Virus record (IMG/VR): IMGVR_UViG_2667527592_000009
Coordinates: 1 to 28,293 of that record
Direction: 5' to 3' (one strand)
Source of the DNA: a virus
Lineage: Duplodnaviria; Heunggongvirae; Uroviricota; Caudoviricetes
DNA length: 28,293 bases
This document shows positions 1 to 26,555 of the stretch, piece after piece (the stretch's first letter is position 1; each line of letters opens with the position of its first letter). The position numbers and the translations under genes were made by a program. The notes beneath the pieces were generated by a model. It did no database searches. It worked only from the letters and a program-made list of their open reading frames with translations, and was not told the DNA's origin.

Positions 1-1077
<1,077 letters not shown>

Positions 1078-1507
1078 TTACATATTGTTTTCTTATTGTG
1101 ATCAAAAACAACAAATTAATAACAAATAATGTGAGGGATAAGAATTGGGTTGAAAGGAAATGAATAATTAAAACAATATATTAAGTGTGCTTATACTCTT
1201 TTTCGAACTGGTGGCATTTGTTTAAATGCTATTTAAACTGCTTTTTCAGAGTTCAACTTACTGAGTTCCGTGTCGACTAATGTGAGTAAGATCAATCGCA
1301 TCCAACCTATGTTACTTGATGGAATCGATAACAATATTAATGAATATACAGATTCCGGGAAGGCTGGCTATGGGGGCAAATTATTCTCTTTCTGGCAACG
1401 GGTAAATAACAGTGACCATTTGTCGAGAAGCTGATACTGAGCTGAGGGATACTGTATATGTCTGGACTGTAATTGGATGAATTCTATTCAGGGCGGGTCA
1501 GGACCAA

Positions 1508-1531
1508 TAAAAAAGCCCGCATCAGCGGGCT
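1508..1531 (-). terminator. Rho-independent terminator (minus strand)
   Basis: Hairpin GCCCGC-atca-GCGGGC (1515-1530) followed on the minus strand by a run of 6 T (plus-strand A-run 1509-1514); lies about 130 nt downstream of the tmRNA-like 3' end copy. Confidence 0.5.
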
Positions 1532-1660
1532 TTAATGTCATAGGGAGTCGCGACTCCGTTGCGTATCCTTTTTTGTCTCCTCACCGTCTGGTCGGTGTCC
1601 TGCTGAGACTTATAACTTCCTGTTTTTGTTGGTGTAGTCCTTACACCGTCCAATCATGAT

Positions 1661-1705
1661 TGGTGGAGCTGGCGGGAGTTGAACCCGCGTCCGAAATTCC
1701 TACAT
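1661..1705 (-). other. Prophage attachment-site core: 45-nt copy of the 3' end of tmRNA (ssrA) including CCA; not a complete gene
   Basis: Minus-strand sequence ATGTAGGAATTTCGGACGCGGGTTCAACTCCCGCCAGCTCCACCA matches the recalled T-arm/acceptor 3' end of E. coli tmRNA; sequence 5' of it (higher coordinates) does not continue as tmRNA, so this is a partial att copy adjacent to int. Confidence 0.6.
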
Positions 1706-1820
1706 ACCATTTTCACTATAACAAAAACATTAACTTGCGTTTAAAATCATCAAGTTAGTATTATCTTATGTTTGTCCGTTTTACTCATTTTTAATGCTCT
1801 GTCGCCAATCTGTCGCCACA

Positions 1821-2471
1821 TTATCCGCTGCTTGAGTTGAAATCTGTGGGTTTACGGAGATTAGATCTTATGGTTTTTTCAGCGATACGAATAGTCGAAA
1901 ATTTATGCAGGTTCATCAGTGCTATACAAATCCCAAGTGCAAAAAAGTAGCTGGACATTCCTAATCTTTGCATATCAGTAAGTTTATTAATTTTCTCTAA
2001 AATATGTTGGGTTACTAATCCTTCGTATACAAAAGGTATGGAAGTTATAAAACCGCCAATAAAATAGAATGTTAAGCTTATCAGCTTTATAGATTTTCTA
2101 TATATCCAAAAGCGATATCTTTTTTTTGTCCATTTAAATATTTGTTTTTCACTACTAATAGAAATTAGTTTTTGACACTTGCTATAGTTATCAATGTCAT
2201 TAACTGGATCGTTAACACCTAAAAGAATCTCTCTCTGTTCTGGAGTTAGGTTCTTATCTTTTGTTATTGCAGCAATACCATAATTATATGCAACTTTCTT
2301 GATTTTGGGATCTTCAGTATTCTTATATAGATTGTATGCAAACTCGCTAATGTTTTTGCGCGAGTTGAAAATCTTATCTTTGGGGAAAACCCAGCCGGAT
2401 CTTACCGCGAGCATCTGTATGATCGGGGTAATTATCGCGACAGAATACTTAATTATCTCGTTTATGTTCAT
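1821..2471 (-). CDS. Hypothetical membrane protein (AT-rich moron between att and int)
   Basis: 216-aa ORF, visibly AT-rich; two C-terminal hydrophobic segments (SIKLISLTFYFIGGFITSIPFVY and SSYFFALGICIALMNL); start 14 nt downstream of int stop on the same strand. Confidence 0.5.
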   Translation of the reverse strand: MNINEIIKYSVAIITPIIQMLAVRSGWVFPKDKIFNSRKNISEFAYNLYKNTEDPKIKKVAYNYGIAAITKDKNLTPEQREILLGVNDPVNDIDNYSKCQKLISISSEKQIFKWTKKRYRFWIYRKSIKLISLTFYFIGGFITSIPFVYEGLVTQHILEKINKLTDMQRLGMSSYFFALGICIALMNLHKFSTIRIAEKTIRSNLRKPTDFNSSSG

Positions 2472-2485
2472 GATCCATTGTTTAC

Positions 2486-3502
2486 TTAAATTAAGTTATA
2501 AAGAGGGTTTTTTGTTACTGCATCCTCCAGGTGGTCTGGAGAGAAGTGTGCATAAATCATCGTCATTTTAATATCTGAGTGCCCTAAAATATCACGTAAA
2601 ACGAGTATGTTCCCACCGTTCATCATAAAATGGCTGGCAAATGTATGGCGCAGGACGTGGGTGCATTGGCCTTCCGGTAGTTCAATACCGGCCCGTTTTA
2701 CCGCCCGTTCAAAGGCTTTTCTGCATGGTGTGAATAATTTCCCTCGGTTTTTGGGTAGCTCGTTGTACAGATCCTGAGATATCGGTACGGTACGGTTTTT
2801 TTTACCCTTGGTCTTTGTATAGGTAATCCGGTATTTCGATAGTTGATGGCCCTGCAGGTTTTCAGCTTCACTCCAACGAGCACCGGTTGCTAGGCATATT
2901 TTTGCAATCATTAGCAGACTGGGGCTTTGAGAATCAGCACAGGCATCCAGCAGACGTTTAATTTCCTCCGGGGTTAGGAACGCCAGTTCACCCTCCGTAA
3001 TTTTAAATGTTGGAAGCCCGGCAAGCGGGTTGGGGGCTGACCAGTGGCCCAGCTTTTTCAGTGTACCAAAAACAGATGATAGGTTGCGCTGTTCAAGGTT
3101 TACCGTGCGGGGCTTAACGGGTGACATGAACGAGCCGTCTTCATTTTGGACCTCCCCCTTTAATCTGGCTTCCCGATATTTTGTGAAATCACCTGCTGTC
3201 AGCTCAGAGGCGATGGGATCGCCTAGACCATTACAGATAATTCTAAGTTTCGCCATCAGGCGTTTGGGGTCTGCGAGTGTTTGACCATATAGGGAATACC
3301 ACTGCTCAATCACTTCTGATAATCGCCGCCGATCTTCCTTCTCACCAAGCCATGGCTTTTTGTTTACTTCGTTCATGGTGAAGTTTTCGAATGCTATGGC
3401 TTCGCCTTTCGTGGCAAATTGCTTACGCACGCGCTTGCCATTGCGTCCATTGGGATAGCACTCACACAACCATTTTCCGTTCGGCTGTTTTCTGATGGTC
3501 AT
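2486..3502 (-). CDS. int: Tyrosine site-specific integrase, P2/186 family
   Basis: 338-aa ORF with C-terminal catalytic motifs (GARWSEA, HVLRHTFASHF, LGHS...MIYAHF); sits next to the att core and is transcribed toward it; 1-nt gap to upstream cI. Confidence 0.9.
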   Translation of the reverse strand: MTIRKQPNGKWLCECYPNGRNGKRVRKQFATKGEAIAFENFTMNEVNKKPWLGEKEDRRRLSEVIEQWYSLYGQTLADPKRLMAKLRIICNGLGDPIASELTAGDFTKYREARLKGEVQNEDGSFMSPVKPRTVNLEQRNLSSVFGTLKKLGHWSAPNPLAGLPTFKITEGELAFLTPEEIKRLLDACADSQSPSLLMIAKICLATGARWSEAENLQGHQLSKYRITYTKTKGKKNRTVPISQDLYNELPKNRGKLFTPCRKAFERAVKRAGIELPEGQCTHVLRHTFASHFMMNGGNILVLRDILGHSDIKMTMIYAHFSPDHLEDAVTKNPLYNLI

Positions 3503-3503
3503 A

Positions 3504-4136
3504 TCAAAGGCTCTTAATGATTTTCAGTGCACGGCCTACTACCTCAATGTCATCCAGGCCACACTCAAACGATGAATCATCCTGATGCACTACTAATCTG
3601 TTTCCCGGGAGTCGAGTCAATTTAACAATGCTTTTTATCCCGTCGATATCGACTAACCACATACCATTCACTGGTGGTGTTTGGTTGCGATCTATTAAAT
3701 AAGAATCACCAGAAGTAGTCACCAGCAGTAGGTTGCTTGAGTCTGAGGGGAGTATGCTGCTATCAATGATTGCTTTTCCAGCATCGACCAATAAACCACC
3801 GTTGAGAGTCGCCTTGTCAATTTCAGGAGATACTAGTTCAGAAAGAGGTACAACCTTGCTGGAGTTCACGGAATTGATATTTTTTTGGGGTTCAATGTTT
3901 GGACCTGGCTCCCCCTGTCCGGTGGTTAGCCACAGTAAAGAAACTCCTGTTTCCAAGGCGCACTGAATCACCCACTCTGCAGGAAAACTATCTCTTAAGT
4001 ATCTGTTTGCCATGGTGCTTTTTGATGCGCCTAAGTGATCGCAAAGTTGCTGTCTGGACTTGAAATCATAGGCTGCCATTAGTCTATGGATAGCTTCTCT
4101 TCCCCCTGTATTCTCTCCAGCCTTTACCTGTATCAT
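3504..4136 (-). CDS. cI: CI-type immunity repressor (186-like)
   Basis: 210-aa ORF immediately upstream of int on the same strand and divergent from the apl/cII lytic operon; helix-turn-helix-like N-terminal region; RBS AGGA upstream of ATG at 4136. Confidence 0.7.
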   Translation of the reverse strand: MIQVKAGENTGGREAIHRLMAAYDFKSRQQLCDHLGASKSTMANRYLRDSFPAEWVIQCALETGVSLLWLTTGQGEPGPNIEPQKNINSVNSSKVVPLSELVSPEIDKATLNGGLLVDAGKAIIDSSILPSDSSNLLLVTTSGDSYLIDRNQTPPVNGMWLVDIDGIKSIVKLTRLPGNRLVVHQDDSSFECGLDDIEVVGRALKIIKSL

Positions 4137-4148
4137 TTTTTAATCCTG

Positions 4149-4177
4149 TTGACGCATCAAATATTGGATCGTAGTAT
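4149..4177 (+). promoter_or_regulatory. Putative lytic promoter pR (sigma70): TTGACG-17 nt-TAGTAT
   Basis: -35 TTGACG 4149-4154, 17-nt spacer, -10 TAGTAT 4172-4177, about 80 nt upstream of apl start; overlapped by repeated operator-like 15-mers. Confidence 0.5.
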
Positions 4178-4200
4178 CTCGATGTATCAAATATTGAATC
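4156..4200. promoter_or_regulatory. Operator-like direct repeats ATCAAATATTG(G/A)ATC, two copies 30 bp apart
   Basis: 15-mers at 4156-4170 and 4186-4200 differ at one position, each centred on palindromic AATATT, overlapping the pR spacer and the start region. Confidence 0.4.
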
Positions 4201-4255
4201 AATTAAAACGAGATAAAACGACGTAAACCAAACCTTAATCGGGAGATACTGCACT

Positions 4256-4498
4256 ATGAGCACTGATATTTCAATTCGTGTACCAAAAGAGATGGCTACG
4301 CCTGCAGAGTTCGCGGAATGGGAAGGTATCTCCCGCGGCTCCGTGTATCAAAAAATTCACCATGGTCAGCTTGCTAAATACATGGTCAAGAAAGAAAAAA
4401 ATAAAGGCCGCGTAAACCTTCGTTATCTGATGTACAAAACTGATCAGGTCCGTGAATCCCTCGGTCATTCCAACTTCCGCGTCATTGTTGGTAAGTAA
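4256..4498 (+). CDS. apl: Apl-like excisionase/transcriptional regulator (Cox/Apl functional analogue)
   Basis: 80-aa first gene of the rightward operon, HTH-like segment TPAEFAEWEGISRGSVYQKI; RBS GGGAG upstream. Confidence 0.55.
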   Translation: MSTDISIRVPKEMATPAEFAEWEGISRGSVYQKIHHGQLAKYMVKKEKNKGRVNLRYLMYKTDQVRESLGHSNFRVIVGK

Positions 4499-4530
4499 GT
4501 TCAATTATGGGAACTTTCTAAGGGGGCACC

Positions 4531-5040
4531 ATGTTTGATTACAAGATTTCCAAACATCCGCATTTCGATGAAGCCTGTAGGGCTTTTGCACTGCGTCACA
4601 ACCTGGTGCAACTGGCAGAACGTGCAGGCATGAATGTACAGATTCTGCGGAACAAGCTGAACCCAGCTCAGCCTCATTTATTAACCGCACCAGAAATCTG
4701 GCTGCTTACCGATCTGACTGAAGATTCAACGCTGGTAGATGGTTTTCTGGCACAGATTCATTGTCTGCCATGTGTACCGATTAATGAGGTGGCAAAAGAG
4801 AAACTGCCACATTACGTCATGAGTGCAACCGCAGAGATCGGGCGTGTTGCTGCAGGTGCGGTATCTGGCGATGTAAAAACCTGTGCCGGTCGTCGTGATG
4901 CTATCAGCAGCATTAACTCTGTAACACGACTGATGGCGCTGGCGGCTGTTTCATTGCAGGCCCGTTTACAGGCTAATCCTGCGATGGCGAGTGCAGTTGA
5001 TACCGTGACTGGCCTCGGTGCTTCATTCGGTTTGCTGTGA
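4531..5040 (+). CDS. cII: CII-like lysogeny-establishment regulator (186 CII-like)
   Basis: 169-aa ORF directly after apl, size and position as in phage 186; RBS AAGGGGG upstream. Confidence 0.55.
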
Positions 5041-5047
5041 GGTGCTT

Positions 5048-5344
5048 ATGCTGACGAAAGAACCATCATTTGCATCGCTGCTGGTAAAACAAAGCCCGGC
5101 AATGCACTACGGTCACGGCTGGATCATGGGTGAGGATGGTAAACGCTGGCATCCGTGCCGTTCACAAGATGAATTGCTGTCTGAATTGACCACGGGGAAA
5201 CGGAGAAAGTCAAAATGTATGCAGCGGAAAGTGAAGTGGTTTATCAGTTTCGTTACAGAGGGGAGAGTTATTCAGTACCTGAAGATGATTTGCTCTGTTG
5301 TTATCCGTCGTTGTCGGGCGATGGCAGTTACTTTTTCACGCTAA
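5048..5344 (+). CDS. Hypothetical early protein, possibly Fil-like; 3' part probably not genuine coding
   Basis: ATG at 5048 with RBS GAGGTG; N-terminal about 55 aa look protein-like (HYGHGWIMGEDGKRWHPC), but the frame runs on over the next well-supported ORF with an Arg/Cys-rich atypical tail. Confidence 0.3.
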   Translation: MLTKEPSFASLLVKQSPAMHYGHGWIMGEDGKRWHPCRSQDELLSELTTGKRRKSKCMQRKVKWFISFVTEGRVIQYLKMICSVVIRRCRAMAVTFSR

Positions 5345-5439
5345 AGGATGGGACGTTTTTACGGGGAGAGCAGGTTAAAGAAACGATACGAAAAAATGTA
5401 TCTCCTCTCGAACGTTACCGTAAGAACAAAGAACAATAG
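5215..5439 (+). CDS. Hypothetical early protein
   Basis: 74-aa ORF with strong RBS (GGAGAAAG, about 8 nt before ATG) and balanced composition. Confidence 0.45.
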   Translation: MYAAESEVVYQFRYRGESYSVPEDDLLCCYPSLSGDGSYFFTLKDGTFLRGEQVKETIRKNVSPLERYRKNKEQ

Positions 5440-5461
5440 TTGCGTTTTGGGGATATGAATT

Positions 5462-5803
5462 ATGGCAATTAATGGCGCTGCAGCGACTGTTCCATTAAGC
5501 CCCGGTGAACGCCTGAATGGACTTAATCATATTGCGGAGTTAAGGGCGAAAGTATTTGGCCTTAATATTGAGTCAGAGCTTGAGCGGTTTATTAAAGATA
5601 TGCGTGATCCACGGGATATCAATAATGAACAAAATAAACGGGCACTGGCTGCCATATTCTTTATGGCAAAAATTCCAGCTGAACGTCATAGCATCAGCAT
5701 TAATGAGCTGACCACTGACGAAAAGCGGGAGTTGATTAAAGCAATGAATCATTTTCGTGCAGTGGTGAGCTTATTTCCCAGACGGCTAACCATGCCGAAT
5801 TAA
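5462..5803 (+). CDS. Hypothetical early-operon protein
   Basis: 113-aa ORF in the operon, RBS GGGGA upstream. Confidence 0.5.
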   Translation: MAINGAAATVPLSPGERLNGLNHIAELRAKVFGLNIESELERFIKDMRDPRDINNEQNKRALAAIFFMAKIPAERHSISINELTTDEKRELIKAMNHFRAVVSLFPRRLTMPN

Positions 5804-5870
5804 CCAACTAATGAAATTAATGGCGTAAACCCGCCGGGCATCCCTTTATCTAAATTCAGGAGAATTGATT

Positions 5871-6104
5871 ATGCGTAATATTGAAACCCTCTCGACTAAA
5901 ACCGGACCGGATGACGCAGGGCTTAATATTTTACTGACAGAGGCTCGTCTGGAAGAACGCCGGGCAAGGGCTGAAGCAATGGCAGCTCGCCTTGATAGCC
6001 TGGCGTGTCATATCACATCCCGCCAGCTAAACCACGTCGAAGCGGCAGAACTGCTGCGTGTAACTGCTGAAGCAATCCAGAACGAAGCGCAGGAGATCCA
6101 CTAA
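5871..6104 (+). CDS. Hypothetical early-operon protein
   Basis: ATG at 5871 with RBS AGGAGA 8 nt upstream; stop overlaps the next gene start (TAATG). Confidence 0.5.
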   Translation: MRNIETLSTKTGPDDAGLNILLTEARLEERRARAEAMAARLDSLACHITSRQLNHVEAAELLRVTAEAIQNEAQEIH

Positions 6105-6331
6105 TGGCTGATGCAATGGATCTCGTACAGCAGCGCGTTGAAGAAGAACGCCAGCGCCATATTCGTGCTGCCCGTGCCAAAACACCGGGCGTGTCTCGCG
6201 TGCTTTGTATTGAATGTGAAGCGCCAATTCCGCCAGCACGACGCCGCGCCATTCCGGGAGTGCAGCTTTGCATTACCTGCCAGGAAATCGTAGAGCTGAA
6301 AGGCAAACATTACAACGGAGGTGCTGTATGA
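6104..6331 (+). CDS. TraR/DksA-family C4 zinc-finger protein
   Basis: 75-aa ORF with CIECEAPIP...CITCQ (CxxC-N17-CxxC) typical of phage/plasmid TraR-like proteins; stop overlaps next start (ATGA). Confidence 0.7.
6317..6331 (+). repeat. 15-nt direct repeat GGAGGTGCTGTATGA (copy 1, TraR-like stop / ASCH-like start junction)
   Basis: Exact match to 6616-6630. Confidence 0.8.
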
Positions 6332-6630
6332 CAGGGGCTGTGCGTATCCATCAATTAAAAATTGCACCTAAGTATTTCAATGCTGTGGTTGCAGGTCAAA
6401 AGACGGCTGAACTTCGTAAAGACGATCGTGGCTATAAAGTTGGTGATGTTCTTTCTCTTTGCGAATGGAAGCATGGCGTATTTACGGGTAGGGAATGGGC
6501 CGCGGTTATCTCTCATGTGCTTCCGGTTAATGACGTCATGGCAGTTTCAGAACAATGGGTGATGCTATCAATTCGCTCATTAACCCCATTAGAAGCTTTA
6601 GGATATGTTATTGCAGGAGGTGCTGTATGA
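6328..6630 (+). CDS. ASCH/DUF3850-like small protein (putative RNA-binding fold)
   Basis: 100-aa ORF from ATG 6328 with RBS GGAGG; family assignment from recalled motif resemblance only; flanked by identical 15-nt junction repeats. Confidence 0.4.
6616..6630 (+). repeat. 15-nt direct repeat GGAGGTGCTGTATGA (copy 2, ASCH-like stop / Dam start junction)
   Basis: Exact match to 6317-6331; both upstream proteins end in GGAV*. Confidence 0.8.
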
Positions 6631-7484
6631 GCACCATCCTGAAATGGGCGGGAAATAAAACCGCAATTATGTCTGAACTGAAAAAACACCTTCCTGCTGG
6701 CCCGCGACTGGTTGAACCTTTCGCGGGTTCCTGTGCTGTGATGATGGAGACGGATTATCCAAGCTATCTGGTTGCGGATATTAATCCTGATTTAATCAAC
6801 CTCTATAAAAAGGTTGCCGCTGATTGTGAATCGTTTATATCTCGCGCCAGAGTTTTATTTAAGGAAGCAAACAGGGAGGTGGCTTATTACAACATAAGGC
6901 AGGAGTTTAATTACTCAAATGAAATTACTGATTTCATGAAAGCGGTATATTTCCTGTATCTCAATCGTCACGGTTACCGTGGTTTATGTCGCTATAACAA
7001 GAGCGGGCATTTCAACATTCCCTACGGTAATTATAAAAATCCGTATTTCCCAGAAAAAGAAATTCGCGCATTTGCAGAAAAAGCCCAGCGGGCAACGTTT
7101 ATCTGCGCCAGCTTTGATGAAACGCTGGCGATGTTGAAGGCGGAGGATGTGGTGTATTGCGATCCGCCGTATGACGGCACGTTTTCCGGTTATCACACTG
7201 ACGGCTTCACTGAAGATGACCAGTATCACCTGGCATCCGTTCTTGAACATCGGTCATCAGAAGGACATCCGGTCATTGTTTCTAACAGTGACACATCCCT
7301 GATCCGTTCGCTGTATCGCAATTTTACTCACCACTACATCAAGGCAAAACGCAGCATCGGTGTGGCAGCTGGCGAGGGTAAATCAGCAACAGAAATCATT
7401 GCTGTTTCCGGGCCGCGCTGCTGGGTGGGATTTGATTATTCGCGTGGCGTGGATAGTTCTGCCGTGTACGGAGTACGTGCATGA
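6627..7484 (+). CDS. dam: DNA adenine methyltransferase (Dam-like, GATC-type N6-adenine MTase)
   Basis: 285-aa product with KWAGNK (AdoMet binding) and DPPY catalytic motif, [15 protein letters not shown] block as in E. coli Dam; start overlaps previous stop and stop overlaps gene A start. Confidence 0.85.
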
Positions 7485-9895
7485 GTCATGCCGATATGAA
7501 CAACTGCTGCGGCTTTAACGAAGCTGCCGCATCGTTCTCATGGAACAGCCCGAAAAAGGCCATTAACCCTTATCTGGACCCGGCGGAAGTTGCGCCGGTT
7601 TCTACGCTTTCAAACCTGATCACTCTGTACGCTGCCGATAACGAGCAGGAACAGCTGCGCCGTGAGGCGCTGAGTGATCAGGTCTGGGAGCGTTATTTCT
7701 TTAATGAATCCCGTGATCCTGTCCAGCGCGAAATGGAGCAGGATAAGCTCATTAGTCGGGCAAAGCTGGCGCATGAGCAGCAGCGTTTTAACCCGGACAT
7801 GGTCATTCTGGCAGACGTCAGCGCCCAGCCCTCCCATATCAGCAAGCCGCTGATGCAACGTATTGAATACTTCAGCAGCCTTGGCAGGCCAAAGGCTTAT
7901 TCCCGCTATTTGCGTGAGACGATTAAGCCATGTCTGGAACGGCTGGAGCATGTACGCGACAGTCAGCTATCCACATCTTTTCGCTTTATGGCAAGCCATG
8001 AAGGGCTGGACGGCCTGCTGATTCTGCCTGAAATGAGTCAGGATCAGGTGAAACGCCTGTCCACCCTTGTTGCTGCGCATATGAGCATGTGCCTTGATGC
8101 AGCTTGTGGCGATTTGTATGCCACCGATGACGTTAAGCCAGAAGAAATCCGCAAGACATGGGAAAAGGTGGCAGCAGAAACCCTGCGACTGGATGTCATA
8201 CCGCCTGCGTTTGAGCAACTCCGCCGGAAAAGAAACCGCCGTAAACCCGTGCCATATGAACTCATTCCGGGTTCGCTGGCGCGTATGTTGTGCGCCGATT
8301 GGTGGTACCGGAAATTATGGAAGATGCGTTGCGAATGGCGGGAAGAGCAGTTGCGTGCTGTTTGCCTGGTCAGCAAAAAAGCATCTCCCTATGTCAGCTA
8401 TGAAGCCGTGATGCATAAACGTGAGCAGCGCCGTAAGTCGCTGGAGTTTTTCCGTTCTCATGAACTGGTGAACGAAGACGGCGACACGCTGGACATGGAG
8501 GATGTGGTAAACGCCAGCAGCAGCAACCCTGCGCATCGCCGCAATGAGATGATGGCCTGTGTTAAAGGTCTGGAGCTTATCGCGGAAATGCGCGGTGACT
8601 GCGCCGTTTTCTACACCATCACCTGTCCGTCACGTTTCCATTCCACGCTAAATAACGGCAGGCCCAACCCGACCTGGACAAATACGACGGTAAGACAAAG
8701 CAGTGATTATCTGGTCGGCATGTTTGCTGCATTTCGTAAGGCGATGCACAAAGCCGGATTGCGCTGGTATGGCGTGCGGGTGGCTGAGCCGCATCATGAC
8801 GGTACAGTTCACTGGCACCTGTTGTGTTTTATGAGCAAAAAAGATCGCCGCACCATTACTGCTTTGTTGCGTAAGTTTGCCATTCGTGAAGACCGCGAGG
8901 AGCTGGGTAATAACACGGGACCACGCTTTAAGTCTGAGCTGATAAACCCGCGCAAAGGTACGCCAACAAGCTACATCGCGAAATACATCAGTAAGAACAT
9001 TGACGGGCGTGGTCTGGCTGGCGAGATCAGCAAGGAAACGGGTAAATCCCTGCGTGATAACGCTGAATACGTTAATGCCTGGGCGTCTCTGCATCGTGTT
9101 CAGCAATTCCGCTTCTTTGGCATTCCGGGGCGTCAGGCTTACCGTGAACTGCGATTGCTGGCTGGTCAGGCGGCAAGGCAACAGGGGGACAAAAAAGCAG
9201 GTGCGCCGGTACTGGATAACCCGCGCCTTGATGCAATCCTGGCTGCTGCTGATGCTGGTTGTTTTGCCACCTACATCATGAAGCAGGGCGGCGTACTGGT
9301 TCCCCGCAAATATCACCTCATCAGAACTGCTTATGAAATCAACGAAGAACCGACCGCATATGGCGATCACGGTATTCGTATTTATGGCATCTGGTCACCC
9401 ATTGCAGAGGGCAAGATCTGCACTCATGCGGTGAAGTGGAAAATGGTTCGTAAGGCCGTTGACGTTCAGGAGGCGGCAGCCGACCAGGGCGCTTGCGCCC
9501 CTTGGACTCGTGGCAATAACTGTCCCCTTGCTGAAAATTTGAACCAACAAGGGAAAGACAAATCAGCTGATGGGGATACCAGAACGGACATTACCCGCAT
9601 GGATGACAAGGAGTTGCACGAATACCTGCACAGTATGAGCAAAAAAGAGCGCCGGGAACTGGCTGCAAGGTTACGCCTGGTGAAACCGAAACGGCGTAAA
9701 GACTACAAACAGCGAATTACAGACCATCAGCGACAGCAGCTCGTCTATGAACTGAAGTCCAGAGGATTTGATGGCAGCGAGAAAGAGGTCGATTTACTCC
9801 TTCGCGGCGGCAGTATTCCGTCAGGAGCAGGCCTGCGTATCTTCTATCGGAACCAGCGTTTGCAGGAAGATGATAAGTGGCGGAACCTGTATTAA
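7481..9895 (+). CDS. A: Replication initiation endonuclease, P2 gpA family (rolling-circle initiator)
   Basis: 804-aa ORF with HUH-like TVHWHLLCF and two-tyrosine YIAKYISK motifs; position after the early operon as in P2/186. Confidence 0.85.
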
Positions 9896-9987
9896 TTACG
9901 CGGGTTAACAATTCGTGCTCTTAATAATACCAGGCATTTCAGGCTGATGAACGTAAAAAAACGTTTTACATCAGTAAGATTATTATA

Positions 9988-10007
9988 TACTGTAAATATA
10001 AACAGTG
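9988..10007. promoter_or_regulatory. LexA (SOS) box TACTGTaaatataaACAGTG
   Basis: CTGT-N8-ACAG with AT-rich spacer, about 40 bp upstream of the ATG at 10048; a TTTACA -35-like hexamer lies at 9965-9970. Confidence 0.6.
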
Positions 10008-10047
10008 GTTATATGTACAGTATTTCTTTGGTGTCATAGGAGGAAAG

Positions 10048-10236
10048 ATGCAGGACTATTTTTTGGAGTCTTTGAAGCTCCAGCGCATTGATTTTTTTCT
10101 TAAGCTTGTAGCGGCTAGTGAGTGTAGTGATGAAGAGAAGGGGCTGGCTCTGCAGTGGGTTTCTGAATTGACTGATGAACTCATGGCAAAAATCAGAACC
10201 CACGAATACAACCGCTCAATGGATGTCATCAGCTGA
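10048..10236 (+). CDS. Small SOS-controlled protein (candidate antirepressor, Tum-position analogue)
   Basis: 62-aa ORF with strong RBS (TAGGAGGAAAG) downstream of the LexA box; first gene of a two-gene module with the DinI homologue. Confidence 0.45.
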   Translation: MQDYFLESLKLQRIDFFLKLVAASECSDEEKGLALQWVSELTDELMAKIRTHEYNRSMDVIS

Positions 10237-10246
10237 GGTGACCTTT

Positions 10247-10480
10247 ATGCGCATTGAAATAATGATCGATAAAGAGCAGAAGATTAGCCAGTCTACCCTG
10301 GACGCCCTTGAATCCGAGCTTTACCGCAATCTGCGCCCCCTGTATCCCAAAACGGTAATTCGCATCCGCAAAGGTAGCTCTAACGGTGTGGAACTGACCG
10401 GACTGCAACTGGACGAAGAAAGAAAACAAGTGATGAAGATTATGCAGAAGGTGTGGGAAGACGACAGCTGGCTGCATTAA
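10247..10480 (+). CDS. dinI: DinI-family protein (RecA co-protease modulator)
   Basis: 77-aa ORF MRIEIMIDK...DALESEL...WEDDSWLH aligns by eye with E. coli DinI (MRIEVTIAK...DALAGEL...WESADDW); RBS GAGGTG. Confidence 0.75.
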   Translation: MRIEIMIDKEQKISQSTLDALESELYRNLRPLYPKTVIRIRKGSSNGVELTGLQLDEERKQVMKIMQKVWEDDSWLH

Positions 10481-10639
10481 GAAAAGTTGCTGGCGTCTGA
10501 ACTTGGTTCTGGCGTCAGCAAGGTTGAACAACGAGTACAGTGAGGCGTTAGGTGTGGCGTTTATTTGATGAGTGAACGCCCGTTCTGCGACAGGTTCGGA
10601 GATTAAGGTTGAAACTACGGGCAAAATACCATCTTTTTC

Positions 10640-11065
10640 CTACTTAATTGAGTCCAGTAACAAGTTACAGTTACTCTCATTGTAGAGAGAACGAGCAATT
10701 AGTGTTACCTGCTTTCCATTCATTCCCGGCTTATCCCATAACACAGCTTCTTGCGACGCCACAAATTCAGCATAATCAATTATGCGTTGTTCGTGATCTG
10801 GTTCCTCATAGCCAAAGTATGAGAGCGCATCGTTGTAAGCGTGGTAAGCTGCTTTCTGTAATATCTTGATATCGGCTGTAGGTACTTGCTCCGTGTAGCT
10901 AGGATCTAATTGTGTGCTACTGCCATAGAATGCACATGAAAGGTAAGATATTGATTTCTGTTGAGCTTTAGTTCCTTTCTCATAGTTTTTAGCTGTTACC
11001 GCCTGAACTGGGACGCTAACAAAGCTTGCAACCAGAATTAAAATTAATACGTAAAAGCTTTTCAT
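10640..11065 (-). CDS. Hypothetical exported protein (signal peptide), moron near cos
   Basis: 141-aa ORF with N-terminal signal peptide MKSFYVLILILVASFVSVPVQA; RBS GAGG; opposite strand to neighbours. Confidence 0.55.
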   Translation of the reverse strand: MKSFYVLILILVASFVSVPVQAVTAKNYEKGTKAQQKSISYLSCAFYGSSTQLDPSYTEQVPTADIKILQKAAYHAYNDALSYFGYEEPDHEQRIIDYAEFVASQEAVLWDKPGMNGKQVTLIARSLYNESNCNLLLDSIK

Positions 11066-11496: not shown

Positions 11497-11627
11497 GCGC
11501 ATGTAGGCAGATTTGTTGGTTGTGTATCACAACCAGTGATTTTAATGGCAGGTGGAATCGCATCCCTGACATCCTTGTTTCGTCGCTATAGGGCCGTTGT
11601 GCTGTGCGAAGGAGTGCCTACATGCGT
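11497..11627 (+). ncRNA. msr-msd: Retron msr/msd non-coding region (template for msDNA), flanked by a1/a2 inverted repeats
   Basis: 12-bp inverted repeats CGCATGTAGGCA (11498-11509) and TGCCTACATGCG (11615-11626) about 105 nt apart; G at 11510 is a branch-G candidate; internal stem TGGTTGTG-tat-CACAACCA (11517-11535); ends 38 nt before the RT start codon. Confidence 0.55.
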
Positions 11628-11665
11628 TCTTCCTCTCTTACTAACTTCTACGATAAAATATAATT

Positions 11666-13426
11666 ATGGTCGCAACTTCTAAATTACTACTTTTGAAAGT
11701 CGCAGCATCTCGTGCTGACTTGGCAAAATTGCTAGATGTTAAGTTGGTGTTTTTAACGAATATTCTTTACAGAATTGGTACTGATAATCAGTATAAAGAT
11801 TTCTCTATTCCAAAAAAAGGTAAGGGAGTCAGATTGATTTCTGCGCCAGAAGATAGTTTGAAAGATCTCCAAAGACGAATAGCCGATCTTTTAATGGAGT
11901 GTAGAGATGAAACTTTCAAAATTAAAAAAATTAAAAACAATTACTCCTTTGGTTTTGAAAGAAATAAGTCAATAATTTCCAATGCTTTCAGACATCGTGG
12001 GAAAAATATAATACTCAATATTGATCTTAAGGATTTTTTCAAAAGCTTTAATTTTGGGCGAGTGAGAGGGTACTTCCTATCCAATAGGGATTTCTTATTA
12101 AATCCGATTGTCGCCACTACTTTAGCTAAAGCCGCATGCTATAAGGGAAGTTTGCCTCAGGGTAGCCCGTGTTCTCCAGTGATAACAAACTTAATTTGTA
12201 GCATTATGGATATTAGATTAGCTAAATTAGCAAAGAGTTTAGGTTGTTCATATAGTCGTTATGCCGATGACATCACGTTTTCAACTAATAAAAAAGAATT
12301 TCCTACCGATTTGGCAATATCTCTTCCTGAGGGGGTTGTCTTGGGGAGCATTCTTGTCAGTGAAATAAAACGTGCTGGTTTTGATATTAATGATGCTAAA
12401 ACAAGGATCTCGTACAAATCCACGAGACAAGAAGTTACGGGACTTACTATAAATAGATTTGTTAACGTTGATAGGAAATATTCGAATAAAACAAGAGCAT
12501 TAGCTCATTCACTTTATAGTAAGGGAGAATATAAGCTACCTGATGAAGATGGTAAGCTAGTCGTGGGGAGTATCGAAAAACTAGAGGGAAGATTTGGGTT
12601 TATTGACCAGATTGATAAATTTAATAACATACAAGATAAAATAAGTAAACAGCCTGAAAAATATGCGCCTATTCATATTACATTAAAAAACTACAGGTTA
12701 AAGCTGAATGTACGAGAGAAGGCATATAGTAAATTTATTTACTACAAGTTTTTTCATGGACATGCTTCCCCGACAATCTTGACAGAAGGCAAAACTGATC
12801 GAGTATATTTAAAATCAGCTATTCGTTCACTTTCTGCCAAATTTCCTGAGTTGCTCAAGAAAAGCACAGACGGTAAAGGAAATGATATCAACTTGAATAT
12901 TTTTAAATCTGATGAGAAGTCAAGTTATTTTATTAATATGTCTGGAGGTAGCGCAGATCTTAAAAAATTCATCGAAAGATATATGGATGAATATTCAAGC
13001 TACTATGGAAGCATTCCTAAGCACCCGGTTATCATGGTATTGGACAACGATTCTGGTTCTAATGAGATTTTGAATTTCCTTAAAAATAATGTTAAGGGCT
13101 GCCCCGATGATACCAATAAAATGAGAAAAATGAGATTTATCCATGTCTTTAAAAATCTCTATATCATTCTAACGCCTTTAAGTGCTACTGGTGAGCAGAC
13201 TGCGATGGAAGATCTTTTTACTCATGATGTATTATCAACTATTCTTGGTGGTAAAAAATTTAACAAAAAGAACGATGGGGACTCAAAAACTGAATATGGG
13301 AAACATGTTTTCTCTGTGAAAGTAGTTAGGGATAAAAAACGAAAAGTTGATTTTAGTGGTTTTGAAATAATACTCAACACTTTTAAAGATGTTTTTGAAC
13401 ATTATAAAAAAATATGCAGCATATAG
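11666..13426 (+). CDS. ret: Retron reverse transcriptase fused to C-terminal TOPRIM (OLD-like) domain, Retron-Ec67 type
   Basis: 586 aa; RT motifs [25 protein letters not shown] (nt 12260-12271), VTGLTIN; C-terminal TOPRIM signatures ILTEGKTD and VLDNDSGS; AT-rich. Confidence 0.85.
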
Positions 13427-13470: not shown

Positions 13471-14508
13471 CTAATTATCTGATAAATTGTATGGTTTGAA
13501 TTTTATGGCTTCCTCTTCTAGCCACAAATTAAGCTCTTCTAAACGCCTTTGTAGAGGAATTAATTCATTCCTCACAAATACCATACTCGCTTTCTCCACA
13601 TCCCCAAACCCCCCAACATTATTCGGCATGATCCCTATCATCTGCGGTGGCACGCGGTGCGCAGCCATCATGTCATCCCGGCTCACGTTCTTGATATTCA
13701 GAAACTCATCCTTCGCCGCGACTTCTGACAGAGGAATGATCTGAAGTCCGTCCTTTTTGCCGTTGGGCGAGTACATAAACAGATTACGGAAGTTGCCAGG
13801 GCCTTTGGCGCTTTTCATCGCATTGCGGAGGTTGTTCACGTCCTCCTGGTTCTGCGCGGCATCGGTCATGTACATGATGAAGCCTGCATGGCTGCCGTTG
13901 ATGTAATACTTACGGCGGAACAGCGTGGCGGACTCGTTGAGCAGGGCTGACGGAATGGCAGAAAGATAACCGGGCAGGCCGTAGATCTCCTGGTTGATGT
14001 CCGGTTCCATCAGATGAAAAATGCTGCCTTTCGTGAACTGATACGGCTGCGTAGTCATGCCGTATTGCACAAACCAGTAGGTATCCAGGTCTAATCCGCG
14101 TCGGGTGTATTTTGCCAGCACAGGCTCAAGGGCGATAACTTCACCGAACCGGTTTGTGCGTTTCTCCAGGTAGGCGTTACCAAATACCAGATAGTCCTGC
14201 ACAAAACGTGAAAAATCCTGCTGGCTGAGCAGCGGGTGAGGGATGTAGGTACTGGTCAGAATGTTGCACTTTACTGCAATCGGGGAGCTGTGATGTACGG
14301 CAGCGCGGAAGGTTCGCGCCAGTCCGTCAAAACTCACTGGCGGCTCATACCAGCGATCTGTCTGTACGCATTCCACATAGTCCAGCAGTTCACGGCGGTC
14401 CAGAACCGGAACGGGATCGCCGAAGCTGAATGCTTCGGCTGAAGTCTGGTTTTTATGCTTGAGCTGATTCGTCGCCGCAGCGCGGTTTTTCTTACTCTTT
14501 CCCATCAA
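13471..14508 (-). CDS. Q: Portal protein (P2 gpQ-like)
   Basis: 345-aa ORF divergent from O-N-M-L, overlapping terminase gene by 4 nt (ATGA on minus strand); size and position as P2 Q. Confidence 0.85.
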   Translation of the reverse strand: MMGKSKKNRAAATNQLKHKNQTSAEAFSFGDPVPVLDRRELLDYVECVQTDRWYEPPVSFDGLARTFRAAVHHSSPIAVKCNILTSTYIPHPLLSQQDFSRFVQDYLVFGNAYLEKRTNRFGEVIALEPVLAKYTRRGLDLDTYWFVQYGMTTQPYQFTKGSIFHLMEPDINQEIYGLPGYLSAIPSALLNESATLFRRKYYINGSHAGFIMYMTDAAQNQEDVNNLRNAMKSAKGPGNFRNLFMYSPNGKKDGLQIIPLSEVAAKDEFLNIKNVSRDDMMAAHRVPPQMIGIMPNNVGGFGDVEKASMVFVRNELIPLQRRLEELNLWLEEEAIKFKPYNLSDN

Positions 14509-16271
14509 AAAATCTCCACAATATTGCTGGTATTGGCGGATTCGCCCTGCAGCGGTTCGTTAAACAATGCGTGCATCGTTGCCCAGGCCAGATCGGCGTG
14601 GCTGGCTTCTTCGCTGCGGCTGGCTTCATAGGTCGGGCGGTTGCCGCTGGCGGTGGTGGCGCGACGGATTGCCATGAATGACTGCGCAATGTCGGTGTGC
14701 CCGGCGTCAAACTCCAGACGGCGGTGGCTGATAATGTCGTAGGCCTTGAGTACCAGGGCGTTTTTAACGTTGGGGTTGTAGACAAACTCCCGGACGGCTG
14801 GAAAAAACGCTTTCACGTTCTCGTAAACCCCGTGGCCGACGCCAGTTGAGTCGATACCGATGTATGTCACGTTGTACTGTTCGGTCAGTTTTTTGATGGC
14901 GTCAGCCTGGGCGCGGAAGTCCATCCCGCGCCACTGGTGACGCTCAAGAATGCGGAACTTACCGCCCGGCACGGCTGGCGGTGCCACCACCACGCACCCG
15001 GCGCTGTCGCCGTTTTGCGTACCTTTTGCCGGGTCATAACCGATCCACACTTCGCGCCAGCCAAACGGGCGCAGGGCCAGTGCATGAAAGTCGGTCCAGA
15101 CTTCCCAGCTGTCCACCATGCACGCCTGCAGCTCGCTGAGCGGGAACACGGACGCGAGATCGTCCACGAATTCACACATCAGCAGGTTCTGGTATTCGTC
15201 CGGGCTGTATTCCATGCGCAACTGGTCAAGGTCGAACAGGTTACAGCCGCCGCGCACCGCATCTTCCACGGTGACTATCTGGCGGTATTGCCCGTCTGCA
15301 CACAGCAGGCCTGGAGCCAGATTGCTGTGGGACAGGTCGATGTCCACCTTGTCGGCTTTATTGCGCCCACGGTTGAATAGCGCACCGGACCAGAACGGAT
15401 AAGCACTGTGTGTCAGGCTGGATGGCGTGGAAAAATAGGTTTGTCGCCATTTTTTGTGAATAGCCATACCGGAAGCCACTTTGCGCAGCTCCTGGAATTT
15501 CGGTATCCAGAAATATTCATCCAGATACAGGTTGCCGTGGTAACTCTGGGCCGTGCGGGCATTGGTGCCGAGGAAATACAGTGTGGCCCCGTTGGGAAGC
15601 ACCATCGGATCGCCTTTCAGCTCCACTTCCACTTCTTTGGCGAAGTCGATGATGTACTGCTTAAAGACGTGGGCCTGTGCCTTGCTGGCGGAAAGGAAAA
15701 TCTGGTTACGTCCGGTAAGCAGAGCGTCAATCAGGGCTTCACGGGCAAAGTAAAAGGTCGCGCCGATCTGGCGTGACTTCAGCAGGTTGCGGATGCGGTT
15801 GGTTTTTCCGGCTTCCCACCAGTGGCGCTGGTAGTTGAACATGGAGGAATGGAAGATTTCTTCCAGCTTCTCAATCTGTTCATCGGTGAAAACGTTCTTT
15901 TCCGGCTGACGGCGCGGGCCTTTGTTGCGGTTGGCGACGTTAGGGTTTAAGTCGGCTTCGTTGCCGCCATTGTTAAACTTGCCGATCCGCGCATGGCGCT
16001 CCGACTGGCGCGCCAGCAGGTCAATCTCTTTGAAATCTTTCCCTTCTTTGTGCTCCTTCATAATGAGCTGGCAGTAGCGTGCGGCGGTGGTGAGCTGCAT
16101 CTGATCCAGCGGCCCATAGTCACCCCACTTGTCGCGTTTTTTCCAGCTGTGAACGGTTGCAACTTTCTCGCCCAGCATTTCGGCAATGCGGGCTACGCGG
16201 TATCCCTGAAAGTACAGCAGCATGGCCTGCCGACGGGGATCGAGATCTGCGGGTGTCAGTGTGGTGTTCAT
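14505..16271 (-). CDS. P: Terminase large (ATPase) subunit (P2 gpP-like)
   Basis: 588-aa ORF upstream of Q on the same strand. Confidence 0.85.
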   Translation of the reverse strand: MNTTLTPADLDPRRQAMLLYFQGYRVARIAEMLGEKVATVHSWKKRDKWGDYGPLDQMQLTTAARYCQLIMKEHKEGKDFKEIDLLARQSERHARIGKFNNGGNEADLNPNVANRNKGPRRQPEKNVFTDEQIEKLEEIFHSSMFNYQRHWWEAGKTNRIRNLLKSRQIGATFYFAREALIDALLTGRNQIFLSASKAQAHVFKQYIIDFAKEVEVELKGDPMVLPNGATLYFLGTNARTAQSYHGNLYLDEYFWIPKFQELRKVASGMAIHKKWRQTYFSTPSSLTHSAYPFWSGALFNRGRNKADKVDIDLSHSNLAPGLLCADGQYRQIVTVEDAVRGGCNLFDLDQLRMEYSPDEYQNLLMCEFVDDLASVFPLSELQACMVDSWEVWTDFHALALRPFGWREVWIGYDPAKGTQNGDSAGCVVVAPPAVPGGKFRILERHQWRGMDFRAQADAIKKLTEQYNVTYIGIDSTGVGHGVYENVKAFFPAVREFVYNPNVKNALVLKAYDIISHRRLEFDAGHTDIAQSFMAIRRATTASGNRPTYEASRSEEASHADLAWATMHALFNEPLQGESANTSNIVEIF

Positions 16272-22288: not shown

Positions 22289-23989
22289 TTATTCAAGGTG
22301 ATTTGAAAGAGTAATTAATGGCTCAATCGGTTGGAACGCTTTTAAGGATGTTAATATGTTTTTAACTTCCTTTGATACGATAGATAACGGGTTGTCTGTT
22401 ACAGATAAGTAGGTGGTTAAATCTTGACCTGAAACACGGATAACATGTGGTAATATCGCAGTTATAACTGGTGTCCAAAGGTCGATTAAATCATCCAGAG
22501 AGTTATTTTTAGATAATGCTGTATCATATTTATATTTTATTTTCTTCTTGTTCAAAGGTTTATCTGTTAATTCTTCAAGTATTTCTCCGATGACGGATAT
22601 TAAAAAGAATCGAGACTTTAAATTTTGGAGGAATAATAAGTTATCCTCATCTACTTTAATTTTATTCTCTTTTGCACGGATTTGAGATTTTACTTTTTCT
22701 ATAGCTTTTGAAATAGTGTAAGCACATAAAATATGCTGGGCTTTCGAATCATGAAAGGCATTGTCATAGGCTGATTTTGTATCGAAAACGTAGTTTTTAC
22801 CTCTATTGGCGCTAACATAATCCCCATGTAACGCTATCAGCGGTTGAGCAACAGACTCAATGCCAAATAAAGAACCAGTATTTTCGAAGCCGCGTTTCAG
22901 TGAATATGTATAACCAAGAGTGGAAAATTCTTCTGCCACCTGTTTTTGTTCTGTGCTGTTAGAGTAGTGATCCCAGGTTGTAATATGATTCTGAGTATTA
23001 TTATACTGGACTATTTTTTTTACTTTGTCCGCATCATTACATTCAATAACCTTACAAAGGACTTTTAGGCCATCTAATTTTTGTATATCTTGAACTGAAC
23101 CAATAGAACCAGTGGTTTGAGCTCCATTTATGATTGAAACTCCTTCCAACAACCCTTTTTCTTTGTTGAATTTTGTTGTTAGGATTGATACACCATTGTT
23201 AAAGACAAAGAAGTCTTTTGGGGATGTTTCTGCGGTATTCTTAATTGATGAGTTTATTTTTCTTCTCTTATTTAATCCCATGAACCCCCTATAATTAGCA
23301 GAAAATAATTCTGCTCCATAATTTTTGTATAAATAATTTAGCCAAGTGCCGTTTGCAAAGCCAACATGTGAAGTCCAGCCATCACCTTGTACAGAATTTA
23401 TAAGTTCGCCATTGAACTTTATATTGTCAGTCACAACAATTTGTTGTGATAGCGCAATATACAATTTTTCAAGACTATTAACACCAAGTTCTCTGTAAGT
23501 TACCTCAATTTCTTTGTCTGCAAATCTACCTGCTAGATAGTCACGACAAGTTTCAAGCTCAGTTTTAACCTGCTCAGATTCGGCACAATTATGGATATAT
23601 AATAATTCAACAGCTTCAATTTCGTTATCATCAATTAATTTTCTAACCTCAGAAATTTTTGCTCTTAATTTTGCATTTGGAGACTCTCCTGAGCCTGCCA
23701 TAATCCACGCTAAAGCAGTGTTTAAGTCAGAAGCTTTATTTGCAGGCGCAACTATTTTAAGTGCTTGCTGATTGCAATAGTAACCCTGAGCAATAAATAA
23801 CGTTGAATTAATTACGGTAATGAAGTCTATTTTCTTATCGTTTCCACCATCAGTAAGTCCATCAGATGCTAGCTTATCAAAATCGGATTCATCTAAGTAA
23901 AGACCTAATGACCATAAAAGATGTGCGTTACTAGTCCCGTACTTTTCTAACAGGGAAGTTTTATTTTGCAGTTGTCTTAAGTGTTCCAT
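22289..23989 (-). CDS. Large AT-rich hypothetical protein, AIPR-like abortive-infection candidate (defence moron)
   Basis: 566-aa minus-strand ORF interrupting the otherwise contiguous S-V late-gene order; markedly AT-rich; own terminator; AIPR-family call is from recalled sequence character and is unverified. Confidence 0.5.
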   Translation of the reverse strand: MEHLRQLQNKTSLLEKYGTSNAHLLWSLGLYLDESDFDKLASDGLTDGGNDKKIDFITVINSTLFIAQGYYCNQQALKIVAPANKASDLNTALAWIMAGSGESPNAKLRAKISEVRKLIDDNEIEAVELLYIHNCAESEQVKTELETCRDYLAGRFADKEIEVTYRELGVNSLEKLYIALSQQIVVTDNIKFNGELINSVQGDGWTSHVGFANGTWLNYLYKNYGAELFSANYRGFMGLNKRRKINSSIKNTAETSPKDFFVFNNGVSILTTKFNKEKGLLEGVSIINGAQTTGSIGSVQDIQKLDGLKVLCKVIECNDADKVKKIVQYNNTQNHITTWDHYSNSTEQKQVAEEFSTLGYTYSLKRGFENTGSLFGIESVAQPLIALHGDYVSANRGKNYVFDTKSAYDNAFHDSKAQHILCAYTISKAIEKVKSQIRAKENKIKVDEDNLLFLQNLKSRFFLISVIGEILEELTDKPLNKKKIKYKYDTALSKNNSLDDLIDLWTPVITAILPHVIRVSGQDLTTYLSVTDNPLSIVSKEVKNILTSLKAFQPIEPLITLSNHLE

Positions 23990-25957: not shown

Positions 25958-26555
25958 TCTGCTGCCACCGGGTTCAACTTCACTGGAGCGCCGACTGGCG
26001 CAGACCTGTAGCGGGATTTCTGATCTGCAGGTGCCGCTGCGTGACTTGTGGAATCCGGCAACCTGTCCGGTCAGTTTCCTGCCTTATCTCGCCTGGGCGT
26101 TCTCTGTGGATCGCTGGGATGAGGGCTGGACAGAAAGCGTCAAGCGCCAGGTGGTGAAGGATGCTTTTTATATTCATCAGCATAAAGGGACCACCAGTGC
26201 CGTGCGGCGGGTGGTGGAGCCGTTCGGCTTTCTGATCCGCATTATTGAGTGGTGGCAGACCGGAGAGGCACCGGGCACGTTTCGTCTGGATATCGGCGTG
26301 CAGGACCAGGGCATCACTGAAGATACCTATCTGGAACTTGAGCGACTGATAAGCGATGCCAAACCATGTAGCCGTCACATGATCGGCATGTCCATCAACC
26401 TGCAGACCAGCGGCCCGCATTGGGTGGGAGCCGCCAGCTATCTTGGCGAAGAAATCACGATCTATCCGTATATCAACGAAACAATTATTTCCGGCGGCAC
26501 CGCGCATGAAGGTGGGGCGGTCCATGTTATTGACACAATGAGAGTGAATCCATGA
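25950..26555 (+). CDS. I: Baseplate/tail formation protein I (P2 gpI-like)
   Basis: 201-aa ORF, RBS GGAGG, overlaps J stop. Confidence 0.8.
   Translation: MNSLLPPGSTSLERRLAQTCSGISDLQVPLRDLWNPATCPVSFLPYLAWAFSVDRWDEGWTESVKRQVVKDAFYIHQHKGTTSAVRRVVEPFGFLIRIIEWWQTGEAPGTFRLDIGVQDQGITEDTYLELERLISDAKPCSRHMIGMSINLQTSGPHWVGAASYLGEEITIYPYINETIISGGTAHEGGAVHVIDTMRVNP

Follow-up and report, generated by a model that had tools for sequence, protein, structure and literature searches.

Between csiD of E. coli and the integrase gene of a P2-like prophage lies a 45-nt sequence that matches the end of ssrA, the gene for tmRNA. This raises the question of whether this sequence is the attachment (att) core at which the prophage integrated, a relic of another element, or an RNA in its own right, and what the sequence between it and csiD represents. 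We examined this in the window, by which we mean the whole stretch of 28,293 nt that was analyzed. The features from csiD to the arm-type integrase (Int) sites of the phage are as follows, with positions given in window coordinates.

1-978, minus strand: csiD/glaH (glutarate dioxygenase), a host gene (Pfam CsiD, E 1.7e-151; annotated as glaH in matching E. coli)
979-1176: upstream region of csiD that is common with K-12 (blastn against the K-12 locus)
1177-1502: host spacer that has no K-12 counterpart and is contiguous at 99.9% in NC101 and many genomes
1503-1660, minus strand: native ssrA 3' trailer of about 155 nt, from just past the CCA to the U-run of a terminator, with four hairpin elements
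1661-1705, minus strand: att core, an exact copy of the ssrA 3' end (T-arm, acceptor 3' strand, and CCA)
1706-1820: phage P arm, the integrase-proximal arm of attP, which aligns with the attP of Cartapus and Fels-2
1800-1807 and 1811-1818, plus strand: two tandem arm-type Int binding sites, TGTCGCCA, predicted from a repeat search and a motif scan

The att core is an exact copy of the 3' end of ssrA

The minus strand of window 1661-1705 reads ATGTAGGAATTTCGGACGCGGGTTCAACTCCCGCCAGCTCCACCA. When aligned with the annotated 363-nt ssrA gene of E. coli, 45/45 nt matched and corresponded to the last 45 nt of the gene. A permissive Rfam search gave a 5'-truncated tmRNA match (43.8 bits against a gathering score of 47, E 3e-16), and the posterior probability in this alignment was high for the last ~45 nt only, comprised of the T-arm, acceptor 3' strand, and ACCA. 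These two comparisons confirm the original prediction that the core reproduces the T-arm and acceptor 3' end of tmRNA together with its CCA. Allowing up to 3 mismatches, the window contained one copy of the core and no second copy, and shuffled sequences (n=100) contained 0. Position T1660 is also common to attP and attB, so that the block of identity is 46 nt long.

It had also been claimed that the core falls short of a complete ssrA gene. In agreement with this, ARAGORN detected no tmRNA or tRNA gene in the window, no part of the window matched Rfam at the gathering score, and the permissive match lacked the 5' portion of the model. A complete tRNA-like domain, a tag reading frame, and pseudoknots, with a score above the gathering threshold, are what identifies a tmRNA gene (Rfam RF00023), and this combination is absent from 1661-1705. 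Thus, 1661-1705 is not a tmRNA gene. A truncated fragment could still act as a tmRNA-derived or tRNA-like RNA, and this one keeps a complete T-arm and the CCA and has a structured trailer next to it. However, the lack of a 5' acceptor strand, tag reading frame, and pseudoknots, the lack of an ARAGORN call, and the Rfam score below gathering all argue against a functional fragment, and the att identity block that it has in common with attP accounts fully for its length and sequence. We therefore give almost no credence to a functional truncated RNA and regard the fragment as an att core.

The junction is very likely a Fels-2-type att site

We compared four forms of the site: attB in NC101, attP in phage Cartapus and in Fels-2, attL in the lysogens SCU-172, S88, and LR-33, and the window. 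The empty site in NC101 is arranged as glaH, 682 bp, intact ssrA, and smpB. This attB is identical to window 1601-1705 and then runs into the body of ssrA where the window turns to phage sequence. Over window 1-1705, NC101 and many other genomes match at 99.9% and have an intact ssrA at this place. The attP of Cartapus and the rejoined ends of the Fels-2 record both contain the same 45-nt core as the window, and the depositors of the Fels-2 GenBank record annotate the core sequence as attP. One side of the attP core is formed by a P arm homologous to window 1706-1830, and the other by a P' arm that contains a terminator. The attL of the three lysogens consists of P' arm, core, and ssrA body, and the window contains the complementary product of host trailer, core, and P arm, the last being 100% identical to the SCU-172 prophage over 1706-1820. 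In the orientation of ssrA this integrase-proximal junction is attR. The check that had been proposed for the junction, a BLAST-type comparison of 1661-1705 and its flanks with ssrA and other genomes, thus gave a match of the core to ssrA and of the flanks to attB and attP. With a left flank identical to the empty site of NC101 and a right flank that is the P arm of a free-phage attP, the sequence is a prophage att site as predicted.

The two arm-type sites in the P arm have a spacing of 11 bp and are as far from the core as the TGCCGCCA pairs are in the attP of Fels-2 and Cartapus. Their sequence fits tgccGCCActt, the consensus for arm sites of the 186 type (PMC3448106). The integrase encoded in the window has 94% identity to Fels-2 Int over 337 aa. 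Both Fels-2 and SopEPhi have been published as phages that integrate at ssrA and leave CGCCAGCTCCACCA intact at the displaced copy of the ssrA end (PMC3448106; PMC10107115 Table 1). The window thus has the core, the correspondence to free-phage attP, the integrase, the arm sites, and the flank of an empty attB that together characterize a Fels-2-type att junction at ssrA. These results make it very likely that a Fels-2-type P2-like prophage with a 186-type Int has integrated in E. coli ssrA and that 1661-1705 forms the core of its integrase-proximal junction. This kind of junction and integrator is already known and is common at the ssrA hotspot.

Fels-2 and SopEPhi are phages of Salmonella enterica (Felsduovirus, Peduoviridae). 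Besides the identical 45-nt core, they resemble the prophage in the window in the order of attP (ogr, P' arm with terminator, core, P arm with two TG(C/T)CGCCA sites, and int), in having the integrase at the end distal to the intact ssrA, and in the intact CGCCAGCTCCACCA at the displaced copy. The prophage studied here differs from them in that its host is E. coli with a B2-type, csiD-proximal ssrA locus, in that a 651-bp cargo gene (orf216) separates int from the arm sites, and in that its backbone is nearer to P2-like phages of E. coli and Klebsiella (~95%) and includes a retron as well as an AIPR gene. Phage 186, which integrates at tRNA-Ile, has the same class of integrase and arm sites and, like the phages at ssrA, a core of sufficient length to reconstitute the 3' end of the RNA gene (PMC3448106), but it differs from the junction here in its target gene and core-binding specificity.

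The K-12 counterpart of this junction is psaA (pseudo-ssrA), at the right end of the cryptic prophage CP4-57. There too, a displaced copy of the ssrA 3' end is found at the distal end of the element and is followed by the same native trailer (90% identity). In contrast to the perfect copy in the window, psaA shares only ~17 nt, which are degenerate (CAGC-CCACCA), and it was made by a P4-type integrase. Excision of CP4-57 from K-12 deletes T357 of ssrA and inactivates trans-translation (PMC10107115).

The example of psaA raises the alternative that the 45-nt copy is a relic of an earlier element that targeted ssrA, for example an island of the P4 or CP4-57 type, and that the P2-like prophage merely adjoins it. 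The ssrA gene is a hotspot for multiple elements, as seen from the CP4-57 relic in K-12, and tandem arrays exist, one example being SCU-172, in which the P2-like phage has a P4-like satellite as its neighbor; complete E. coli genomes have a median of 2 core-containing places each. However, P4-type relics retain only ~14-17 nt of the ssrA end, often in degenerate form (K-12 psaA; PMC10107115 Table 1), whereas in the window the full 45 nt continue unbroken into the P arm, as they do in free-phage attP, and on the other side straight into the native trailer. A relic is extremely improbable on this evidence, and we proceed with 1661-1705 as the att core of the P2-like prophage itself.

csiD adjoins ssrA in many E. 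coli genomes

The distance between csiD and the core (979-1660) is 682 bp, which agrees with the figure of about 680 bp given in the original prediction. Using blastn, we found that window 1-1176 aligns to K-12 at 93% identity, and the csiD allele itself is at 93%. No blastn match to K-12 was found between window positions 1177 and 1509, and in place of this 333-bp spacer K-12 has ~10.6 kb (positions 23638-34286 of the K-12 locus, L010). This K-12 block contains ypjA, pinH, ypjB, ypjC, ileY, and ygaQ and is without an ssrA-type att boundary. The end of ssrA and the start of glaH in K-12 are 33,029 bp apart, a distance made up of CP4-57 (22 kb), which separates ssrA from the relic psaA, and the ypjA-ygaQ block. 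This measurement supports the earlier statement that tens of kb separate ssrA and csiD in K-12. The related proposal that island content at ssrA differs from that of K-12 also held, since csiD, the trailer, and the ssrA core are contiguous in the window, an arrangement also seen in 1,104 of 5,426 complete E. coli genomes, many of them with an intact ssrA there. Thus, the adjacency of ssrA and csiD is a common alternative state of a known hotspot, and the window shows a strain with a B2-type ssrA locus in which csiD is immediately downstream.

This adjacency could be misleading if the assembly had been joined wrongly through the 45-nt repeat, leaving an island hidden between the prophage and the trailer or csiD. 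Short-read assemblers can be misled by a repeat of this length, the assembly is a draft in which the window ends at a contig end, and the exact combination of alleles is absent from finished sequences: among the complete E. coli genomes examined, none had the B2-type csiD flank together with the orf216/int allele of the window over at least 80% of 900-3600. However, 96 of the 5,426 complete E. coli genomes have the architecture of trailer, core, and Fels-2-type P arm, the junction in LR-33 is 96.5% identical over 285 nt, and finished genomes match each of the two halves of the junction at 99-100% identity. We consider an assembly artifact very unlikely and treat the junction between host trailer, core, and P arm as genuine.

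Probable Campbell-type integration and the far end of the prophage

The anatomy of the junction, as read from the sequence comparisons above, fits Campbell-type integration by a tyrosine integrase of the 186 type. In the proposed course of events, Int would catalyze site-specific recombination between the phage attP and the 3' end of the host tmRNA gene, with attP bringing a 45-46-nt copy of the ssrA 3' end that has arm-type Int sites on its flanks. The complete ssrA at the ogr end would then be composed of the host 5' part, the core, and a terminator supplied by the phage. The second copy of the core would be displaced to the integrase end, where it would still be joined to the native trailer and terminator (1503-1660) and to the host DNA that extends to csiD.

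A partial element in LR-33 (L001, NZ_AP027523) bears on where the strands might be exchanged. At 2990-7413 in this locus, a truncated remnant of this same phage containing orf216, int, cI, and a partial cII lies between an intact ssrA and ypjA. The terminal segment of its displaced core is degenerate (CAGCCC--CCA) and the T-arm part is perfect. Because of this pattern, we infer that the strands are exchanged within the core at a point 5' of its terminal CAGCTCCACCA. The displaced copy in the window is perfect, and for this reason excision would be expected to bring back a wild-type ssrA. The native terminator at 1512-1533 may now end transcripts that leave the cI-int-orf216 side and in this way shield the csiD promoter.

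The end of the window at 28293 is also the end of draft contig JXWE01000021.1 (GCA_000948835.1) and falls inside a tail fiber assembly gene, suggesting that the prophage is split across contigs. In S88 and SCU-172 the gene order is junction, int, cI, replication, head, lysis, tail, D, ogr, intact ssrA, and smpB, so that the intact ssrA and smpB are at the ogr end, 34-35 kb from the junction. In related lysogens, a phage-borne terminator starts 9 nt past the CCA of the intact ssrA. By comparison with these strains, an intact ssrA and a second copy of the core likely lie at the far end of the prophage in the window, as had been anticipated. Arrays at ssrA are common, as judged from the median of core-containing places given above, and a further element may therefore be present between the prophage and ssrA in this strain. 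An array of this kind is found in SCU-172 (L005), where the ssrA site occupied by the P2-like prophage also contains a P4-like satellite (666-11062), arranged in tandem on the far side of the displaced core copy of that prophage. The satellite encodes a P4-family primase, Psu, a Delta-like protein, an integrase, and a NACHT-domain cargo gene.

Gene content of the prophage

The features between the P arm and the end of the window are as follows.

1821-2471, minus strand: orf216, a cargo gene (651 bp) between int and the arm sites
2486-3502, minus strand: tyrosine integrase of the Fels-2/186 type (Pfam Int_N and Phage_integrase)
3504-4136, minus strand: CI repressor of the 186 type (Pfam Phage_CI_repr and Phage_CI_C; an identical gene is annotated in SCU-172 and LR-33)
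4256-4498, plus strand: Apl/Cox-like gene (position-for-position annotation in SCU-172, S88, and Fels-2)
4531-5040, plus strand: cII-like gene (position-for-position annotation in SCU-172, S88, and Fels-2)
5041-28293: remainder of the P2-like prophage to the contig end, including capsid, lysis, and baseplate genes (Pfam-labelled gene list)
7481-9895: replication gene A (Pfam-labelled)
13471-16271, minus strand: portal and terminase (Pfam-labelled)
26552-27958: tail fiber (Pfam-labelled)

The Apl/Cox-like and cII-like genes (4256-5040) start the early lytic operon. The remaining prophage sequence from 5041 to 28293 is ~95-98% identical to P2-like phages and prophages of E. coli and Klebsiella. 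The junction thus sets one of the limits of what is probably an intact P2/Fels-2-like prophage, with a retron and an AIPR gene among its contents.

Between int and the arm sites is a slot that has been described as a minor defense hotspot of P2 phages (PMC13586616). Related prophages have various genes there, among them those for GapS1, an HNH endonuclease, and a RES-domain protein. The occupant of this slot in the window, orf216, had no match in Pfam, NCBIfam, or PADLOC. It has 28 homologues, all labelled hypothetical, and those from named organisms are from Enterobacteriaceae. The sequence contains hydrophobic segments and the structural model is all-helical with moderate confidence (pLDDT 72.7); a comparison of the model with the PDB gave no fold match.

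Two regions of low GC content were observed in the prophage. An Ec67-family retron (11498-13426, plus strand; GC ~33%) occupies the hotspot between gpA and gpQ. Its 586-aa RT-Toprim protein matches NCBIfam NF038237 at 685 bits and is classified as type I-C by PADLOC. A perfect 12-nt inverted repeat (11498-11509 and 11615-11626) is found just upstream of the RT-Toprim gene, which is the expected place of msr/msd. A low-GC, AIPR/AbiU-like gene encoding 566 aa (22289-23989, minus strand) is located between tail-completion gene S and baseplate gene V, and S88 has this same gene in the corresponding position.

The ssrA 3' trailer looks like a conserved structured RNA

A minus-strand terminator and a palindrome, GGAGTCGCGACTCC, had been noted between att and csiD, and we found both. 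The elements of the trailer, listed from the CCA outward, are as follows.

1631-1647, minus strand: hairpin H1 (RNAalifold prediction)
1575-1609, minus strand: central two-helix hairpin (RNAalifold prediction)
1544-1557, minus strand: hairpin H2, formed by the palindrome, with a 5-bp stem and a CGCG loop
1512-1533, minus strand: intrinsic terminator of the trailer, AAAGCCCGC-UGAU-GCGGGCUUU, then UUUAUU

The terminator scan predicts a terminator with its stem at 1533-1512 on the minus strand, containing 9 pairs, of which 6 are G-C, and with a U-run (T-run in the DNA) directly after it. An outer 5' pairing in the trailer is also predicted by RNAalifold. The sequence comparisons indicate that the terminator and palindrome are parts of the native ssrA 3' trailer, not isolated features. 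The trailer occurs directly 3' of intact tmRNA genes in NC101, E. albertii, E. ruysiae, E. whittamii, and Pseudenterobacter timonensis, and it occurs behind displaced or degenerate ends of ssrA in K-12, S88, LR-33, and Citrobacter.

The trailer in the window scored 186.5 bits with covariance model R1. A scan of IMG/VR for the trailer gave 74 loci. The first trailer alignment was in part selected by a pattern in the central region; a second IMG/VR scan was anchored on the ssrA end plus 10 nt only, gave 94 loci, and had the trailer block in every sequence of judgeable length. Overall there were 81 distinct trailer haplotypes. Between E. coli and Pseudenterobacter, identity is 56% in the smpB-ssrA spacer, 96% in ssrA, and 86.5% in the trailer, and it is 50% in the next 200 nt.

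We asked whether the changes among trailers follow the predicted pairing. In an alignment of 28 trailer sequences, 99.3% of cells pair. Double-sided changes were seen at 5 pairs (25 cells), compared with 0-2 pairs (0-7 cells) when the partners were slid by 1-3 columns, where the sequences are related and cell counts, here and below, are not counts of independent events. The observed covariation score was reached in 0/500 shuffles. Among the individual changes, the terminator has a compensatory change from G-C to A-U in K-12-type copies (GCCCGC/GCGGGC to GCCCAC/GUGGGC), and H2 has compensatory U-A/C-G and G-C/A-U changes across haplotypes as well as G-U wobbles. In the most divergent copy (L143), inspection of the sequence by eye revealed pair changes on both sides in each of the two central helices. 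G-U/U-G cells numbered 64 and A-C/C-A cells 3. This ratio indicates that the structure is formed by the RNA strand with the sense of ssrA and not by DNA.

Two other causes of conservation were considered. A DNA-level cause, such as an extended attB, is disfavored by the asymmetry between G-U and A-C. A coding function was rejected: the short ATG frame in the trailer is interrupted by a stop at codon 5 in Pseudenterobacter, is frameshifted in Citrobacter, and ends at another stop position in K-12. A search of Rfam found no family for the trailer and gave only weak, terminator-driven matches, and in the literature we found nothing relevant on an RNA downstream of ssrA or on the trailer. The conservation over background, the compensatory changes, and the strand-specific tolerance of G-U are the properties by which conserved structured RNAs are recognized, and on these grounds the trailer (1503-1660) looks like a conserved structured RNA in Escherichia, Citrobacter, and Pseudenterobacter.

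A conserved terminator and some structure are expected 3' of any stable-RNA gene. It is possible, but in our view somewhat doubtful, that the trailer has a function as a structured RNA beyond termination; candidate functions would be a trailer-derived small RNA or a module for processing or insulating pre-tmRNA. The 3' external transcribed spacers of tRNAs, such as 3'ETS-leuZ, act as small RNAs. By analogy, and for the trailer only, 3'ETS-leuZ may serve as an example of how the region 3' of an abundant stable-RNA gene can yield a by-product that is conserved and structured. If the trailer does have such a function, integration of any element at ssrA would cut it off from the ssrA promoter and move it to the end of the island array.

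The trailer is the only part of this locus that is possibly new. In K-12, and in Salmonella with Fels-2 or SopEPhi at ssrA, prophages part the trailer from ssrA, and the trailer may have been overlooked because of this separation in the usual model strains. Strains with an empty site, such as NC101, are suited to asking whether the ssrA transcript, among the most abundant in the cell, gives a second RNA product.

Two trailers deviate from this general pattern in their structure or surroundings. The trailer of the E. albertii type strain (L013, 1861-2019) is remodelled: it lacks ~16 nt before H2 and has a different hairpin (CCGTTC...GGAACGG) in place of the terminator. A Clostridiales-labelled metagenome-assembled genome (SFGJ01000059.1; L016, 4379-4537) contains an E. 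coli B2-type trailer that is almost unchanged. In this case the trailer is joined to ...ACTCCGCCAGC and the CCACCA-ATCATGATTGG part is deleted; the contig is probably enterobacterial contamination of the bin.
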